From: Yuukianura sp. NJ FZ-2021
Taxonomy: Eukaryota
Assembly (NCBI GenBank): GCA_046563655.1
Contig: JAJCTO010000009.1
Span: forward strand, 620,001 to 684,000
Direction of reading: 5' to 3'
Length of the DNA: 64,000 bases
Of this stretch, positions 1-9,300 are shown piece by piece; the stretch's first letter is position 1, and each line of letters starts with the position of its first letter. The position numbers were made by a program, and so were the translations under genes. The notes below the pieces were generated by a model. That model searched no databases, was not told the origin of the DNA, and was given only the letters and a program-made list of their open reading frames with translations.

Positions 1-373
1 AGCTCAAAGGAGAAGTGCCGGTGAAATGACAAGCGCGACCTCACTACAAATACCAACCAGTACTCATTTTGACATCATGATACACAATGACTCAGACGGC
101 AACTGAACTTCAGGGGAAATCCCATTATTACATTTTCTAAATCAAAATCGAACATTCAGCATTATTTGTTATTTTGATTAAAATTTTTAGAAAATACTTT
201 TTTATGTCATACTACCACCTTGCACTTCCAATAAAGCACATCTGAAAAACTGGTGTTCAACACTAATCTGGAATTATATTTTAGCCCAACTCCACTATGC
301 AACAAGTGCATAAATCTGACTGTCATTTTGGTATAAACTAATGTGGGAACTATACAACGAAGTTTTAAACATA
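1..373. repeat. Partial ~508-bp satellite unit, left of the LTR insertion
   Basis: Same sequence as the downstream array (agctcaaaggagaagtgccgg...gaagttttaaacata), broken at CATA by the LTR element. Confidence 0.97.
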
Positions 374-756
374 TGAGACGCCTGCTCGTCCATAGCGTTA
401 GTAGAGTGTTAGGATAGGGGCAAGGTGAGATGACGATGTGGCTCGCGGTAGATTTGAGTTGAGGCGAGGAGCGAGCGAGCAGAGGAGTTTTGTATAGAGT
501 TAGTCAGTCTGGTTTTGGGATTGTGGGAGAGAGGAGATCAGAGTTAGATATTATTTAGTGATGATTGATTATTGTGTATATTGATTATTTTTCATCAGTT
601 ATTAAATATATTTTATATATTTAACCACTGATGTGGTTTTGGTGTTTCGGTGAGTTTTGGTCTTTGGGCAGTTGTGGGATCTGCTGATCAGTGATGAGAG
701 TCTGAGGGCGTGGCTGCGGCCATATTTCTGGAGGAGTAGCGGTGCGAGACGCTACA
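374..756 (+). repeat. 5' LTR
   Basis: Direct repeat of 2754-3136. By eye they differ by 3 substitutions and 2 single-base indels. Confidence 0.95.
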
Positions 757-759
757 CAG

Positions 760-769
760 TGGCGACCGT
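760..769 (+). promoter_or_regulatory. Primer-binding site (tRNA-Arg type, as in 412/mdg1-group Gypsy elements)
   Basis: TGGCGACCGT 3 nt after the LTR end, complementary to a tRNA 3' end ...ACGGUCGCCA. The tRNA-Arg assignment is from recall and was not searched. Confidence 0.8.
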
Positions 770-1770
770 TCGTGACACAACTACCAAAGGTCAGTGAGCT
801 CATTAAAGGTCAAATGCGTTTGACCCGAAATTTTGGTAAAAATAGTGAAAAATCATGATCAGCTGCGGTTGTTCATCAAAAGTGGAAGTGCATGGAGTCA
901 TTGCGATGGCTTTCATAGTGTCTAGGAGTCACGATTAGTGGCTCCAATCATGTCAAAGGTCACCGATGACCAAAAAGAAGATAATTAGTGAAGTGTACAG
1001 TGCATATGGATAAACCAAGTTAGAAGAAGCATGGTAATGTATTAATGTAGTGATATAGAAAAAAAAATTGTTGCTGCGGCAATGCATGTGGTAGTGGAAA
1101 GCATGCAGAAGGTAGTTCAAAAGTTAGCAGAGGGAGTCGCTGCGGTGGCTCCAATCAGTGGTGGAAGTGATCAGACAGGAGCTCATTTCGGCCCTGGGAA
1201 TGGTGAAATTCACTTCAGCACCATGCCAGTTGATAGTTCCAAAGTCTGCTACTATGAAGTAGGCGGCAGTAGTGTAGATATGTGATGTGAATAAGTTAGT
1301 GCAGTGATTGTGCGGTTGAAGTGATCCAAAAATGTCAAAGTTGTGACAAAGTGAATTCAAAATTTTAAAAAGTGAAAAGATGAAGAGTGATGAAAGTGAT
1401 AATTTAAAAAATCATAGAAATTGCTCAAATGGCAAAGGACTCAACCCAGTTGGCTCCAATTTAAGAATAATTTATGGAAGATGTGGTTTTTGCGGAAATT
1501 ATGGTGGAAGTGTGTGCCATTATGGAAGGAAGTGTTGTGCATCACTCGTTAAAAAACTTGTAAATAGTTAAAATTATTATTAGTGTGAGTGCCCAGGGAG
1601 TTGCGTTTTAGCAGCTCCAATCAAGTGTAAATAGTGTGTTCCGGGAAGATAATGCAGTGAGAAGTGGATTGTGAAGTGAGAAGTCTAGTGATGACTGTTG
1701 ATAGTGAGAATTTGTATGACCACGAAGGTGGCATACTGCAGAATGATGGACTCAAAGGAGGTCACATTAA

Positions 1771-1941
1771 AGAGAGCATTTGCCCGGCCACGTTGCTGAA
1801 GTGCGGTGTTACTCTAGCTCCAAACAGTGAGCTTTTACAAAAAATGCTACGGAGGGTCTCAATCCCTCAAAATCAAGAAGAGAGCGTTTGCCCGGCCACG
1901 TTGCTGAAGTGCGGCGTTACTCTAGCTCCTCATTGTGAGCT
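1771..1941 (+). repeat. Two copies (offset 108 bp) of a ~63-nt structured motif in the LTR element interior
   Basis: agagagcRtttgcccggccacgttgctgaagtgcggYgttactctagctc-N8-gagct at 1771-1833 and 1879-1941. Confidence 0.85.
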
Positions 1942-2043
1942 TAATAGTGCTGCGGTGCTAAAAAGTAAAATTTAAAAGTGAGTGCATGTGTAGTGAAGTG
2001 AATATTATTGGAAAAAATCAGTTGAATTGGATTGTTTCGCTTC

Positions 2044-2461
2044 AAGTTCTGTGTTGTTGAGGGTCTCACTGTCCCGTTAAGTGAAGGAAGGAGGAACACA
2101 GAGTTTGTCGCTGTGCAGGAGAGTGAAATTATTGAACTTTATATGTGTATTCAGGGTCTTATCCCCTAAAAAAGATTAAACAATGAAAAAATGAAAAAAG
2201 TTTTTGTAAGTGTGTCAAAGTGAATTAATTGGCTTTTTATTTGATGGAAGTGCTGCGGTTTTGTCTACAAATTCTGAGTTGTTTGGGTCTCACTGTCCCG
2301 TAAAGTGAAGGAAGGTGGAACTCAGAATCTGTAGCAGCAGAAAGGAGTCAAGTCATTGGCTTCAAAGTGTTTGTGTTGTTGTGGTGCTCATTGTCTGCAA
2401 TTTCGACTGTTGGGGGTCTCACTGTCCCGTATAAAGTGATGGAAGGTGGAGTCGCAAATTG
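2044..2461 (+). repeat. Three copies of a conserved core enclosed by different long stems
   Basis: gggtctcactgtcccgt(N1-3)aagtgaWggaaggWgg within 2044-2106, 2265-2334 and 2398-2461, each bracketed by its own inverted repeat. Confidence 0.85.
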
Positions 2462-2740
2462 GTGGAAATGCAGTGGCAGTGGAGTCCATTAATGGGCTCC
2501 AATCCAGTTTATTTTGAAAAAATTAGTGAAAGTGTAAGTGTTGACGTGATGGATCATCAGGGAGGAATCCGATGCTGCGGTTGACGATTACTATGATGAA
2601 GACTCCGCTGATGTCCATGATGAGATGACTGTGGGGATGATGCCGATCGCGATGGAGTTGCAGAGATTCGGGAGTAGCAGTCGTCTGCGGAGCTGCTGCA
2701 GTTGGATGTCGCCCGTGGTTCGACTGGAACGCCATCCATC

Positions 2741-2751
2741 GGAAGGGGGAA
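2741..2751 (+). promoter_or_regulatory. Polypurine tract
   Basis: GGAAGGGGGAA immediately upstream of the 3' LTR start at 2754. Confidence 0.85.
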
Positions 2752-2753
2752 CG

Positions 2754-3136
2754 TGAGACGCCTGCTCGTCCATAGCGTTAGTAGAGTGTTAGGATAGGGG
2801 CAGGTTGAGATGATGATGTGGCTCGCGGTAGATTTGAGTTGAGGCGAGGAGCGAGCGAGCAGAGGAGTTTTGTATAGAGTTAGTCAGTCTGGTTTTGGGA
2901 TTGTGGGAGAGAGGAGATCAGAGTTAGATATTATTTTAGTGATGATTGATTATTGTGTATATTGATTATTTTTCATCGTTATTAAATATATTTTATATAT
3001 TTAACCACTGATGTGGTTTTGGTGTTTCGGTGAGTTTTGGTCTTTGGGCAGTTGTGGGATCTGCTGATCAGTGATGAGAGTCTGAGGGCGTGGCTGCGGC
3101 CATATTTCTGGAGGAGTAGCGGTGCGAGACGCTACA
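2754..3136 (+). repeat. 3' LTR
   Basis: Direct repeat of 374-756, followed by the TSD CATA and resumption of the satellite in exact register. Confidence 0.95.
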
Positions 3137-3944
3137 CATACCGAAAAATGGAATTTATGCCTTGTTATCGCTTATAACCATCTTCATGGAACGCATCTAA
3201 TACCGGTCCACTTTGTCGTAGTGCATCAACGACTATTACATACGGTGAACCACTTGTTGTCAGCCTTCATCTTTGAGCTCAAAGGAGAAGTGCCGGTGAA
3301 ATGACAAGCTCTCCCTCACTACAAATAACAACCAGTACTCATTTTGACACCATGATACACAATAACTCCGACGGCAATGGAGCTTCAGGGGATCCCATCA
3401 TTACATTTTCTAAATCAAAATCGAACATTCAGCATTATTTGTTATTTTGATTAAAATTTTTAGAAAATACTTTTTTATGTCATACTACCACCTTGCACTT
3501 CCAATAAAGCACACCTGAAAAACTGGTGTTCAACACTAATCTGGAATTATATTTTAGCCCAACTCCACTATGCAACAAGTGCATAAATCTGACTGTCATT
3601 TTGGTATAAACTAATGTGGGAACTATACAACGAAGTTTTAAAAATACCGAAAAATGGAATTTATGCCTTGTTATCGCTTATAACCATCTTCATGGAACGC
3701 ATCTAATACCGGTCCACTTTGTCGTAGTGCATCAACGACTATTACATACGGTGAACCACTTGTTGTCAGCCTTCATCTTTGAGCTCAAAGGAGAAGTGCC
3801 GGTGAAATGACAAGCGCGACCTCACTACAAATACCAACCAGTACTCATTTTGACACCATGATACACAATGACTCAGACGGCAACTGAACTTCAGGGGAAA
3901 TCACATTATTACATTTTCTATAGCAAAATCGAACATTCAGCATT
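3137..3944. repeat. ~1.6 satellite units between the two retroelements
   Basis: Matches the array consensus. Confidence 0.97.
3667..3814 (+). ncRNA. Candidate structured RNA core of the satellite unit (representative copy; one per unit), family unknown
   Basis: Near-invariant across copies while the adjacent ~240 bp is polymorphic. Closing helix CTTGTTAT/ATGACAAG plus internal helices. I recognise no match to known snRNA, 5S, tRNA or SL families. Confidence 0.3.
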
Positions 3945-4017
3945 TTTTTTTTTTTTCTACTTAAAACATTTTTATTTCTGAACCTTAATTTAAAAACACT
4001 TGGATGAAACTTAAATA

Positions 4018-5121
4018 CTAGAGATAAAATATTTCCAATAATTCTCTTCCGGGAGGAAGCGTTCCTAAGATTGAGGCACAGTTGCCACGTTGCATTTCAA
4101 GGCTAATTCTCTGGAAAAGGAATGACGTGGCTTTTTGTTCCCCAGTGTAGTCAGCAATCCGTTGGCCAATAGACTTCAGTATCTTCAGACCTTCGTCTCC
4201 AATGACCCCGGATGATTCAATTGCGATGATTGATACGATGAAACGATCTTCAAGTTCTGCGTAGACGTTATGTTTGTGTGTTTCGGCGAGAGCAGCGGCA
4301 TGTCCGCAGACGTTTGAACATGAGTGGACATAGGATGATGCAAACGTATCCCGACATGTAAAATCCCACGCTAAGGAACGACCAGACTTCCAAGGAATTA
4401 ATGTGATGCCATCTGGTCGTTTTCCGTCAGATCTCGAACAACCGGGCGGTTCCTTGATGCTTGGAATTCCTGCTGAGCGAAGCGCTCGAAAGATTAAGTC
4501 GTTGACAGAGTTATGTCTGGAGTGGCGTCCAGCGCTTTTTAAACAGCTAAGGCCGTGAAGTCCGTCGCTAGAAACTTGAGCTCCGCAAACACATTTGTGT
4601 GAAAGGCAGATATCTGAGCCGAGGCGTAGAGCACATGAGATTCTGAAGCATTCGTTATTTAGCAGGGTGCCAAGTTGAGGAGAAGGAATCGCGTTCAGCC
4701 AGTCACCGGCATGTGGAGAAGCGACAGCAAGAAGGCGAGCTTTGTCAGTAGGTGTTGAGCAATTGTTAAGCAGCTCGTTGTAGGTACTTTGACTGATTTC
4801 AAAGTCCCATTGTCTTTGTATTTTTGGATTTTCTGGAAGCACGAATCCTTTCTCTAACCATTGTGTAGAAGCCAGATCCAAAGACAGATCGGAACGTGAC
4901 AGATTGCTTGGCAGAAAGAGGTCGACGAGATCAGAACAGCAGTGGATTGAAGCCAAAAATGAAACGGTAGCACAATCGACTGCATGACGGATTCCCAGAC
5001 CTCCTTGGGACACAGGAAGAGAAGATTGTCGCCAAGAGGAATCTGATAAGTTGATGTTCAGGGTGTTCACTAAGACTTGACGAAGACAATTGTCGTAGGT
5101 GGTCAGTAGGTCGTTTTCCAG
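4018..5121 (-). pseudogene. Thumb, CCHC zinc knuckle and RLE endonuclease portion of the retrotransposon ORF
   Basis: LPVSQGGLG; CVC...HGLSC (CCHC); RHN; RPDG...AWDFT...AETHKHNVY (PD-(D/E)xK-type RLE); IESSG. The N-terminal 33 aa of track ORF 4018-5226 derive from the inserted transposon. Confidence 0.92.
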
Positions 5122-5126
5122 GAATG

Positions 5127-5656
5127 CACTATGGGCCGGATAGGCTTTGTGTTTGGTAAAAATTATAATAAGTGAAATAATATAACATGTAGTCAGTGAC
5201 CCCTTACGACTAAACGACTGAACCAAAGTATTGAGACCTATATATTTTCGGAATCAGCAGGTCAAGAGCTTTCCAACGACACCTTGTTTGTGTGGGGTCG
5301 TCATAGGATGACCTCTTGACCTCTGGTGACCTTCGATAGGCCGTTTCAGACGCACTACTGCGAAAATGCAAAAAAGGGCAGCAGTGTATGTTCTATAGAG
5401 TATGACCTTCCTATTAGCGCTTAGAGTTTCAAAATACATAGTGGAACCTAGGGGAACGGGCTGATTTACTACAAGCCCATACACTGCAATGCTAAATCCC
5501 AACTTCCGCTTGCCATAATGAAATGACGAAGGGCCCTAAAGCTTAGCCCTTGCGTGAAAAAAAAGTCCACATACTGGAGAGACTTTTTAGGCCTGCAACA
5601 CTAAAATCGCTTACATCGACTAAATACCAGCCACGAGGCCTACCCGGCCCATAGTG
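5127..5656. mobile_element. Non-autonomous Transib-superfamily DNA transposon (MITE-like, 530 bp)
   Basis: Imperfect ~32-bp TIRs: CACTATGGGCCGGATAGGCTTTGTGTTTGGTA (left) and CACTATGGGCCGGGTAGGCCTCGTGGCTGGTA (right, reverse complement). 5-bp TSD GAATG at 5122-5126 and 5657-5661. CAC-heptamer ends with a 5-bp TSD are characteristic of Transib/RAG-like elements. No transposase ORF. Confidence 0.88.
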
Positions 5657-6379
5657 GAATGATGGGAAGCAACGTAGGAAGTAGATCAGCCTCGGGGTAG
5701 AAATAGATGCTCTTAGGAGGAATAGAGCGGCGTGGGCAGGTAATAAAGAGAGCCTTGCAGAGAGGCGACTGAAATCTTCTGTTTTCTTTTTGATTATACG
5801 ACGACAGGAAGCAGTGTTTAGAGGTGCACCGAGGAGTTCTGCGTTTTCTTCATCAGGGACCCCAATGTCGTCAGCAAACGCGCGAAAAGACTTCACAATT
5901 GAGGAACTTTCAGATGGACTTGCGTTGAGGACAATAATTTCGCATTTCTTGAAGTTTAGATGTAGGCCAAAAGTAGCAGCATCTTTGTCAATTCGCTTCA
6001 GTTCGGATAGCACGGCCTCAGGAGAGTCTCCAATAGTAGCATCATCAAGGTACCAAACATTAAATTCCGTCTTGATAGAAGTAGCCATAGGATGGACTGT
6101 CAGGGCAAAGAGGGCTGGACCAAGGGGATCCCCCTGTTGCACACCTAGGCTGGACTTGATTCTGCAGGATCCGTAGAACAAGTCGGAATCAGTTGAGTAG
6201 GCTTGAGATACAAAATTGTAGAAGTCAGGGAAGGTATGTTTTACTGATTGCAGCATTTTGTCCCTTCTAATTAGATTAAATGCGTTCCGGAAGTCCATCT
6301 TGAGCAGCACCTTGGGGGATGAATGAGGAGTATTCGTGTAGATTCTAGCAGCATGGGCAACTGCTTCTGCTCCGTTCTT
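5657..6379 (-). pseudogene. Reverse transcriptase portion of the retrotransposon ORF (5'-truncated, interrupted by the Transib-like insert)
   Basis: Motifs KMDFRNAFN, GVQQGDPLGPALF, WYLDD, GLHLNFKKCE, LLGAPL. The 'ML' start comes from target DNA. The C-terminus of track ORF 5543-6385 after CFPSF reads into the inserted transposon. Confidence 0.92.
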
Positions 6380-9300
6380 CAGCATTATTTGTTATTTTGA
6401 TTAAAATTTTTAGGAAATACTTTTTTATGTCATACTACCACCTTGCACTTCCAATAAAGCACACCTGAATAACTGGTGTTCAACAATAATCTGGAATTAT
6501 ATTTTAGCCCAACTCCACATTGCAACAAGTGCATAAATCTAACTGTCATTTTGGTATAAACTAATGTGGGAACTATACAACGAAGTGTTAAACATACTGA
6601 AAAATGGAATTTATGCCTTGTTATCGCTTATAACCATCTTCATGGAACGCATCTAATACCGGTCCACTTTGTCGTAGTGCATCAACGACTATTACACACG
6701 GTGAACCACTTGTTGTCAGCCTTCATCTTTGAGCTCAAAAGAGAAGTGCCGGTGAAATGACAAGCTCGCCCTCACTACAGATACCAACCGGTACTCATTT
6801 TGACACTGTGAATCACAATGACTCAGACGGCAACTGAAGTTCAGGGGAAATCCCATTATTACATTTTCTAAATGAAAATCGAACATTCAGCATTATTTGT
6901 TATTTTGATTAAAATTTTTAGAAAATACTTTTTTATGTCATACTACCACCTTGCACTTCCAATAAAGCACACCTGAGTAACTGGTGTTCAACAATAATCT
7001 GGAATTATATTTTAGCCCAACTCCACTATGCAACAAGTGCCTAAATCTAACCGTCATTTAGGTTTAACTAATGTGGGAACTATACAACGAAGATTTAAAC
7101 ATACTGAAAAATGGAATTTATGCCTTGTTATCGCTTATAACCATCTTCATGGAACGCATCTAATACCGGTCCACTTTGTCGTAGTGCATCAACGACTATT
7201 ACACACGGTGAACCACTTGTTGTCAGCCTTCATCTTTGAGCACAAAGGAGAAGTGCCGGTGAAATGACAAGCTCGCCCTCACTACAGATACCAACCAGTA
7301 CTCATTTTGACACTATGAATCACAATGACTCAGACGGCAACTGAACTATTACATTTTCTAAATCAAAATCGAACATTCCGCATTATTTGTTATTTTGATT
7401 AAAATTGTTAGGAAAGACTTTTTTATGTCATACTACCACCTTGCACTTCCAACAAAACACACCTGAATAACTAACTGGTGCTCAACACTAATCTGGAATT
7501 ATGTTTTAGCCCAACTCCACTATGCAACAAGTGCATAAATCTAACTGTCATTTTGGTATAAACTAATGTGGGAACTATACAACGAAGTTTTAAACATACC
7601 GAAAAATGGAATTTATGCCTTGTTATCGCTTATAACCATCTTCATGGAACGCATCTAATACCGGTCCACTTTGTCGTAGTGCATCAACGACTATTACATA
7701 CGGTGAACCACTTGTTGTCAGCCTTCATCTTTGAGCTCAAAGGAGAAGTGCCGGTGAAATGACAAGCGCGACCTCACTACAAATACCAACCAGTACTCAT
7801 TTTGACACCATGATACACAATGACTCCGACGGCAATGGAACTTCAGGGGATCCCATTATTACATTTTCTAAATCAAAATCGAACATTCCGCATTATTTGT
7901 TATTTTGATTAAAATTGTTAGGAAAGACTTTTTTATGTCATACTACCACCTTGCACTTCCAACAAAACACACCTGAATAACTAACTGGTGCTCAACACTA
8001 ATCTGGAATTATGTTTTAGCCCAACTCCACTATGCAACAAGTGCATAAATCTAACTGTCATTTTGGTATAAACTAATGTGGGAACTATACAACGAAGTTT
8101 TAAACATACCGAAAAATGGAATTTATGCCTTGTTATCGCTTATAACCATGTTCATGGAACGCATCTAATACCGGTCCACTTTGTCGTTGTGCATCAAAGA
8201 CTATTACACACGGTGAACCACTTGTTGTCAGCCTTCATCTTTGAGCTCAAAGGAGAAGTGCCGGTGAAATGACAAGCTCGCCCTCACTACAAATAACAAC
8301 CAGTACTCATTTTGACACCATGATACACAATAACTCCGACGGCAATGGAGCTTCAGGGGATCCCATCATTACATTTTCTAAATCAAAATCGAACATTCCG
8401 CATTATTTGTTATTTTGATTAAAATTGTTAGGAAAGACTTTTTTAAGTCATACTACCACCTTGCACTTCCAATAAAGCACACCTGAGTAACTGGTGTTCA
8501 ACAATAATCTTTAATTATATTTTAGCCCAACTCCACTATGCAACAAGTGCCTAAATCTAACCGTCATTTAGGTTTAACTAATGTGGGAACTATACAACGA
8601 AGATTTAAACATACTGAAAAATGGAATTTATGCCTTGTTATCGCTTATAACCATCTTCATGGAACGCATCTAATACCGGTCCACTTTGTCGTAGTGCATC
8701 AACGACTATTACACACGGTGAACCACTTGTTGTCAGCCTTCATCTTTGAGCACAAAGGAGAAGTGCCGGTGAAATGACAAGCTCGCCCTCACTACAGATA
8801 CCAACCAGTACTCATTTTGACACTATGAATCACAATAACTCAGACGGCAACTGAACTATTACATTTTCTAAATCAAAATCGAACATTCCGCAGTGTTTGT
8901 TATTTTGATTAAAATTGTTAGGAAAGACTTTTTTATGTCATACTACCACCTTGCACTTTCAATAAAGCACACCTGAGTAACTGATGTTCAACAATAATCT
9001 GGAATTATATTTTAGCCCAACTCTACTATGCAACAAATGCATAAATCTAACTGTCATTTTGGTATAAACTAATGTAGGAACTATACAACGAAGTTTTAAA
9101 CATACTGAAAAATGGAATTTATGCCTTGTTATCGCTTATAACCATCTTCATGGAACGCATCTAATACCGGTCCACTTTGTCGTAGTGCATCAACGACTAT
9201 TACACACGGTGAACCACTTGTTGTCAGCCTTCATCTTTGAGCTCAAAGGAGAAGTGCCGGTGAAATGACAAGCGCGACCTCACTACAAATACCAACCAGT

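Follow-up and report, generated by a model that had tools for sequence, protein, structure and literature searches.

A candidate RNA motif with three copies in a gene-less LTR retrotransposon inserted in satellite DNA of Yuukianura sp.

Described systems and the locus

To our knowledge, the signals by which gene-less LTR elements are recognised are almost unknown outside a few vertebrate and yeast models. In the descriptions consulted, LARD and TRIM elements share one layout, in which an LTR, a PBS, a non-coding internal domain, a PPT and a second LTR follow each other between the copies of a target duplication. They are described mainly in plants, and their spread is presumed to depend on the proteins of an autonomous element. 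The element considered here has the same layout, with a PBS-like site in the place of the PBS, and is presumed to spread in the same way, and its size of 2.76 kb is between that of a typical TRIM and that of a typical LARD. None of those descriptions mentions a module that is present three times and carries an invariant core on a free-sequence helix. Non-coding LTR groups are said to specify conserved RNA structures in the part of PMC7215508 that was consulted. The kind is thus already known, while the motif is new.

The element lies in a stretch of 64,000 nucleotides from Yuukianura sp. NJ FZ-2021 (assembly GCA_046563655.1, contig JAJCTO010000009.1, positions 620,001 to 684,000 of the forward strand), which is the whole of the DNA analysed and is referred to as the window. 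Three units, each with a core enclosed by a helix (A units), and a second type of hairpin (B hairpins) form an A/B array at 2043-2504 of the window.

The MPMV CTE, the IAP RTE and the MusD MTE are vertebrate elements. They lie downstream of the last gene and ahead of the 3' LTR and affect the full-length transcript in cis; in the CTE, the conserved loop is present in two copies. As far as the excerpted descriptions go, all of them are structured RNAs with multiple stem-loops, like the A/B array. PMC11379458 gives a length of 162 bp for the CTE, the loops of which bind NXF1, and of 412 bp for the MTE, which has multiple stem-loops. The A/B array occupies the corresponding position: it is on the sense strand, and its distance from the 3' LTR, in the upstream direction, is 250-710 nt. 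The likeness is one of description, and no Rfam family of this kind matched the array.

Retroviral packaging signals are usually located in the 5' leader beside the PBS, and they let a helper carry gene-less elements. Mouse VL30 and ETn are packaged non-coding LTR elements with clusters of stem-loops, the exposed purines of which are bound by Gag/nucleocapsid. The location found here is different: the A units lie ~1,290-1,700 nt downstream of the end of the 5' LTR, in the 3' part of the element rather than in a 5' leader, although B hairpins do occur from 925 onward.

The xrRNAs and dumbbells of flavivirus 3' UTRs are tandem paralogous units with conserved cores, pseudoknot potential and compensated stems. 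The A units have the same features. However, the flavivirus units belong to another kind of replicon, and the array has no match in Rfam to an xrRNA or to a family from flavivirus 3' UTRs. Retrozymes, the LTR-bearing plant form of which is described in PMC4918200 (consulted in part), are likewise non-coding, helper-dependent retroelements with a small structured RNA. They are defined by hammerhead ribozymes in their repeats, whereas Rfam finds neither a hammerhead nor any other ribozyme here in 1-4000, a range that includes both LTRs.

The host element and its surroundings

Most of the window, ~58 kb (1-373 and 3137-64000), is satellite DNA whose monomer, ~508 bp long, is repeated 114-115 times; the copies are mostly 95-100% alike. 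Only two stretches in the window are not composed of monomers, 377-3132 and 3957-6377, and both are retroelement insertions within the satellite. The latter is a 5'-truncated non-LTR retrotransposon on the minus strand with two open frames (5543-6391 and 4018-5253) and an RVT_1 domain (E 5.6e-16); a T-run at ~3944-3957 would be its poly(A) tail. Among named proteins, its closest relatives are of the R2/CRE-like type and come from the springtail Folsomia candida (~53-56% identity).

The host of the motif is the other insertion, a non-coding LTR element of 2,763 bp (374-3136, + strand) that is inserted in a 508-bp satellite monomer (Table 1). Placing the motif in an LTR element, as the first-pass annotation did, is borne out by the LTRs, the target duplication, the PBS-like site and the polypurine tract. 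Paired LTRs with TG...CA ends, a target duplication and the lack of gag/pol coding capacity are all found, as in non-autonomous LTR retrotransposons. The uninterrupted satellite monomer has AATA where the element has CATA (3649-3652 region). The PBS-like site starts with TGGCGACCG at 760 and the purine run ends directly at the 3' LTR; together, their orientation makes + the sense strand of the element. The PBS assignment is tentative, and no tRNA genes or tRNA-like genes are present in the window.

Table 1. Features of the LTR element and of the motifs within it (positions in the window)
Feature	Position	Strand	Composition or basis
Target-site duplication CATA, left	370..373	+	read from sequence
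5' LTR, 383 nt, TG...CA ends	374..756	+	379/384 aligned columns identical to 3' LTR
PBS-like site TGGCGACCGTTCGTGAC	760..776	+	starts 3 nt after 5' LTR; read from sequence
B hairpin, GGAGTC, 9-nt loop, GGCTCC, AATC	925..949	+	motif search, pairing count
B hairpin	1133..1156	+	motif search, pairing count
B hairpin, degenerate: GGACTC, one unpaired cell	1437..1461	+	motif search, pairing count
B hairpin, C-G to U-A exchange at loop-closing pair	1597..1622	+	pairing count
Reduced hairpin GAGGG-TCTCAAT-CCCTC	1852..1868	+	sequence and motif count
A unit copy 1	2043..2107	+	stem 2043-2055/2095-2107, linker GTTGA, core 2061-2094
Reduced hairpin AGGG-TCTTATC-CCCT	2153..2167	+	sequence and motif count
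A unit copy 2	2265..2334	+	stem 2265-2280/2319-2334, linker GTTT, core 2285-2318
B hairpin after copy 2: GGAGTC, 8-nt loop, GGCTTC	2344..2363	+	pairing count, 561-nt fold
A unit copy 3	2398..2461	+	stem 2398-2408/2450-2461, linker GTTGG, core 2414-2449
B hairpin after copy 3	2481..2504	+	pairing count, 561-nt fold
Polypurine tract GGAAGGGGGAACG	2741..2753	+	adjoins 3' LTR; read from sequence
3' LTR, 383 nt	2754..3136	+	alignment to 5' LTR
Target-site duplication CATA, right	3137..3140	+	read from sequence

The longest stop-to-stop frame on the + strand of the element has 104 aa, and none of four internal frames matches Pfam at E up to 1. A frame of 68 codons before the 3' LTR (2550-2756, + strand) has an acidic start, and its TGA stop is formed by the first bases of the LTR. 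Its 68-aa product has no relatives among longer proteins and no Pfam match. In the DNA sequencing runs described below, contig depth is raised in the bin 2546-2616, which overlaps this frame. The host is presumably a gene-less, helper-dependent LTR retrotransposon. A Gypsy helper is compatible with a single feature, the length of 4 bp of the target duplication; because the element holds no coding remnant, the type of helper is not assignable from it. Contigs in three of the DNA runs (X2-X4) join 758 to 2753, that is, LTR end to LTR start with 2-3 bases between. Such an LTR-LTR junction is of the type seen in tandem LTRs or where a circle junction has integrated.

The internal region (757-2753, 1,997 nt) is poor in C on the sense strand, with 294 of 1,997 bases, and looks like a patchwork of decayed repeat units. 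Compared with dinucleotide shuffles, it is enriched in CTGCGG (7 vs 0.12), AGTGA (25 vs 6.1) and GCTCCA (6 vs 0.33). Two 65-nt direct repeats (1770-1834 and 1878-1942, 90.8% identical) bracket the reduced hairpin at 1852-1868. The B hairpin, which consists of GGAGUC, a free loop of 8-10 nt, GGCUCC and then AAUC, has six copies in this region. It is found downstream of A copies 2 and 3, and in a decayed form after copy 1. B hairpins also stand alone farther upstream, from 925 on, and are often preceded by GCAG.

The core, its enclosing stems and their covariation

The core was described in the first-pass annotation as occurring three times, and this is confirmed. A search for the 17-nt start of the core, GGGTCTCACTGTCCCGT, with up to 3 mismatches allowed, returns three matches at 2061, 2285 and 2414, all exact and all on the + strand. 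By chance, 0.07 matches would be expected, and three were obtained in 0 of 100 shuffles. The full cores have a length of 34-36 nt, and variation between them is confined to three places: a stretch of 1-3 nt after CCCGT, plus two A/T positions. The reduced hairpins reported earlier are also present. GGGTCT is found at five sites in the element, namely in the three cores and in these two hairpins, where shuffles lead one to expect 0.3. The first 9 bases of the copy 1 core (2061-2069) are complementary, with one bulge, to 2753-2762, which comprises a G and the start of U3; shuffled cores do no worse.

Each core is enclosed by paired arms. The stem of copy 1 had been given as 12 bp with two G-U pairs; the G-U pairs stand, and the length becomes 13 bp through one additional C-G pair. 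The other two stems are as previously reported: 15 of the 16 positions pair in copy 2, with a single A/C mismatch, and copy 3 has 11 bp and one bulged C, at 2455. Since the G-U pairs of copy 1 fit the sense strand only, the earlier preference for the + strand also holds.

Judged from the alignment of the tandem units (1974-2134 and 2196-2358, 69% identical; 2219-2365 and 2346-2502, 67.5%), the three copies are paralogous units of an old, diverged tandem duplication. In a three-way alignment, pairwise identity in the core is 32/34, 31/36 and 33/36. The corresponding values are 24/31, 14/31 and 14/31 for stem and linker, and 58/127, 38/133 and 52/136 (29-46%) for the outer flanks of the units. 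Recent copying-over of the whole core is unlikely, because the three tolerated core positions differ between copies. The stem arms are alignable between copies, so that their differences are readable as events.

These differences agree with the earlier claim that the stems are kept by compensating changes around a near-fixed core, as does the contrast in identity between core and flanks. Among the 13 pairs of the outer helix, five have changed on both sides, two have changed on one side, three are invariant and three contain an unpaired cell. Pairing extends to 94.2% of 52 cells, compared with 23-48% when the partner strand is slid by 1-3 columns, and the covariation score is matched by 1 of 500 shuffles; with n=3 related paralogues of one element, in an alignment fitted to the structure, these are thin statistics. 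RNAalifold, to which the structure was not supplied, returns the same outer helix together with an inner UCUCACU/AGUGA(A)GG helix, in total 25 pairs of which six are changed on both sides. The inner core helix is without covariation support, as 5/5 of its pairs never vary. For the putative GGG/CCC pseudoknot, covariation cannot decide because those bases never vary, and the only features that favour a GGG/CCC helix are the two reduced hairpins.

A covariance model of the three copies, which had been proposed as a check, recovers these three alone in a search of 1-7000. Their scores are 99, 97.7 and 86.4 bits, and the next score, 18.8 bits, belongs to the minus strand of copy 2. Folding energies of single copies are weak evidence, with z values of -1.21 for copy 1, -2.85 for copy 2 and -0.56 for copy 3. 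The minimum-energy fold of copy 3 differs from the proposed one, and its centroid retains the outer stem. Copy 2 folds better on the minus strand, at -23.4 vs -21.4 kcal/mol on the plus strand. The 561-nt region 1960-2520 has z -3.65 on + and z -2.84 on -, and its + fold shows copies 1 and 2 and two B hairpins as proposed. A loose scan for stems, in which G-U pairs and one mismatch were allowed, yields 20 stems vs a shuffled mean of 18.2, and is uninformative in this G/T-rich sequence. Some known folds were considered and rejected: an HDV-like double pseudoknot, looked for by eye, has no conserved P1-strand partner upstream of the stems, and for a K-turn or box C/D the 5' linker (GUUGA, GUUU, GUUGG) is not conserved.

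The B hairpin, in which the stem is fixed and the loop is free, is the converse of the A unit. Its stem is paired in 35 of 36 cells (97.2%), and a U-G pair occurs in 6/6 copies. The minus strand is disfavoured for B, as the U-G pairs would become C-A mismatches there. Covariation in the B stem is weak; there is one change on both sides, and 87 of 500 shuffles do equally well.

On the strength of these comparisons, the motif is a real and well-bounded candidate RNA motif of a non-autonomous LTR retrotransposon, in which it is present as three paralogues.

Other contexts of the core and its possible role

Sequencing data provide a view of the core outside this element. Five DNA runs from two studies contain the internal region, and the contigs of four of them (X1-X4) were mapped at 80% likeness. 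The bin 2262-2332, which holds the core of copy 2, has the highest summed contig depth of 30 bins in 4/4 runs. Depth in this bin, to be read as a sum over contigs and not as copy number, is 153 in X1 (12 and 19 in the adjacent bins), 11,854 in X2 (837 and 1,336), 8,470 in X3 (308 and 1,654) and 2,414 in X4 (124 and 562); it is also greater than in the bins at the LTR edges. In all four runs, loose contig ends with other flanks begin precisely where the core does, at 2285. They are also found at 2318, the last core base, again with different flanking letters, and the loose ends behind 2336 and 2337 show a B-type hairpin again after the core. One 5' and one 3' loose end in X1 could pair over ~10 bp with a 2-nt bulge, as judged by eye for two ends that may come from different loci. 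Contig joints from 2259 to 2370 and from 2167 to 2262 correspond to family members with one unit more or one unit fewer. Taken together, this suggests that the core occupies many more contexts than this element. Of the base differences in the contigs, 40 of 525 were listed, too few to demonstrate that the core is unchanged in other genomic copies.

Exact-pattern scans for the core gave 0 matches in metagenome (two patterns), viral and prokaryote contigs; these negatives weigh little because the collections scanned are poor in animal DNA. In a full-text search of the literature, the 15-nt core was not mentioned, whether spelled as DNA, as RNA or as its reverse complement. The core had been said not to match the known hammerhead, HDV, twister or pistol cores, and an Rfam 15 scan of 1-4000 agrees, with no family matching the motif at E up to 10; the ribozymes covered include hammerhead, HDV-like, twister, twister-sister, pistol, hatchet and hairpin. 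A second scan, of 2030-2520, gave no match at all with ribozyme, xrRNA, snRNA and tRNA families included.

On balance, and with modest confidence, we take the motifs to be modules of a cis-acting docking domain in the sense-strand RNA, which would serve packaging, export or stability in a helper-dependent, gene-less element. Each module would use a free-sequence helix of 11-16 bp to present a near-invariant core of 34-36 nt. The core itself would consist of the inner helix UCUCACU/AGUGA(A)GG, a possible GGG...CCC pairing and then a purine-rich tail, GGAAGGWGG. Each A module is followed by a second hairpin, GGAGUC-loop-GGCUCC-AAUC, and the A/B array may offer several docking sites to a protein that is supplied in trans. 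A candidate for this partner is the Gag/nucleocapsid of an autonomous element, for packaging; alternatively, the partner may be a host factor for nuclear export, localisation or RNA stability.

We infer from sequence the selection on RNA structure, the protein as partner and the life-cycle step that would be served. Selection on the structure of the sense RNA best explains a near-fixed core, kept pairing and wobble pairs that fit one strand, while the invariance of the core points to a partner that recognises its sequence specifically. By analogy with the CTE, RTE and MTE, the position upstream of the 3' LTR and a core that apparently extends beyond this family tilt the choice towards an export or stability element. 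A bolder and quite unlikely reading is that the core represents a new compact, possibly pseudoknotted RNA class (a ribozyme, an exonuclease-blocking knot or an aptamer-like protein trap), which a helix of free sequence would display and which would have spread, at very high copy number, through several retroelement families of this arthropod-like genome, beyond the element described here.

The same three copies might be a neutral relic: a tandemly duplicated palindromic unit with a core homogenised by copying-over (reverse transcription or recombination) and with paired flanks that are the remains of an ancestral palindrome. The copies are indeed tandem paralogues and only three in number, and the joints from 2259 to 2370 and from 2167 to 2262 show recombination between units. 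However, the variable core positions and parts of the stems differ, although copying-over would have made them uniform as well, and neutral decay does not yield five stem pairs that have changed on both sides and yet pair. The core also occurs with other flanks elsewhere in the genome, and we consider such a relic unlikely. An element that acts at the level of DNA, where the core would be a repeated site for a DNA-binding protein and act as an enhancer or insulator, is very unlikely. Some insect LTR elements carry repeated sites in untranslated regions, and a DNA-level role would account for an invariant core of ~34 bp present three times with variable spacers, for the strong enrichment of short motifs in the internal region and for the abundance of the core in DNA runs. 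It leaves unexplained why arms that have diverged in sequence are still complementary, and why the G-U pairs are possible on one strand only. Depth at the core above that at the LTR edges could also come from an independent small RNA gene, or another abundant short repeat, captured within the element; the unit is like small RNA genes in its size, 63-70 nt, and its closing stem. Yet no Rfam small RNA family matches and no tRNA-like gene is found, the units form part of longer tandem units that have diverged and include a B hairpin, and other contigs again show a B-type hairpin after the core (2336, 2337). We regard a capture of this kind as highly improbable.

The same low probability is given to a self-cleaving ribozyme of an undescribed class, comparable to that of retrozymes but with another catalytic motif, in which the catalytic core would be fixed and the helix closing it would vary. 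The architecture of the A units would fit small ribozymes, as their closing helix is free in sequence, their core is invariant and a compact GGG/CCC pseudoknot that crosses UCACU/AGUGA may form; the setting in a high-copy non-coding retroelement would fit as well. Against this, no Rfam ribozyme family is found at E up to 10 over 4,000 or 491 bases, no hammerhead, HDV-like or twister core is seen by eye, and an invariant core suits a protein site equally well. Least probable of all is an aid to reverse transcription, in which the purine-rich end of the core would prime plus-strand synthesis like an internal polypurine tract, or the core would pair with the PPT/U3 junction. The copy 1 tail GGAAGGAGGAAC (2086-2097) agrees with the 3' PPT GGAAGGGGGAAC (2741-2752) in 11 of 12 bases, all purine, and copy 2 also reaches 11/12, but a T interrupts the purine run in copies 2 and 3, and the likeness to the PPT does not exceed chance. 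Within the element, the core would form its best duplex with the PPT/U3 junction, 2724-2768. The duplex has a value of -34.4 vs a shuffled mean of -28.1 (sd 2.6), and this pairing was rejected as evidence because 1 of 30 shuffled cores does as well. Such an aid would also leave the stems and the conserved 5' half of the core unexplained.

The preferred reading, a cis-acting docking domain, touches on how gene-less LTR elements persist, as they spread only via RNA signals that are recognised by helper proteins or by the RNA machinery of the host. The module is a sharply bounded candidate, with ~31 fixed bases, a free-sequence helix, a companion hairpin and hints of very high abundance. If it is common to autonomous elements, it would identify a parasite-helper pair and would give a new RNA family for genome annotation.
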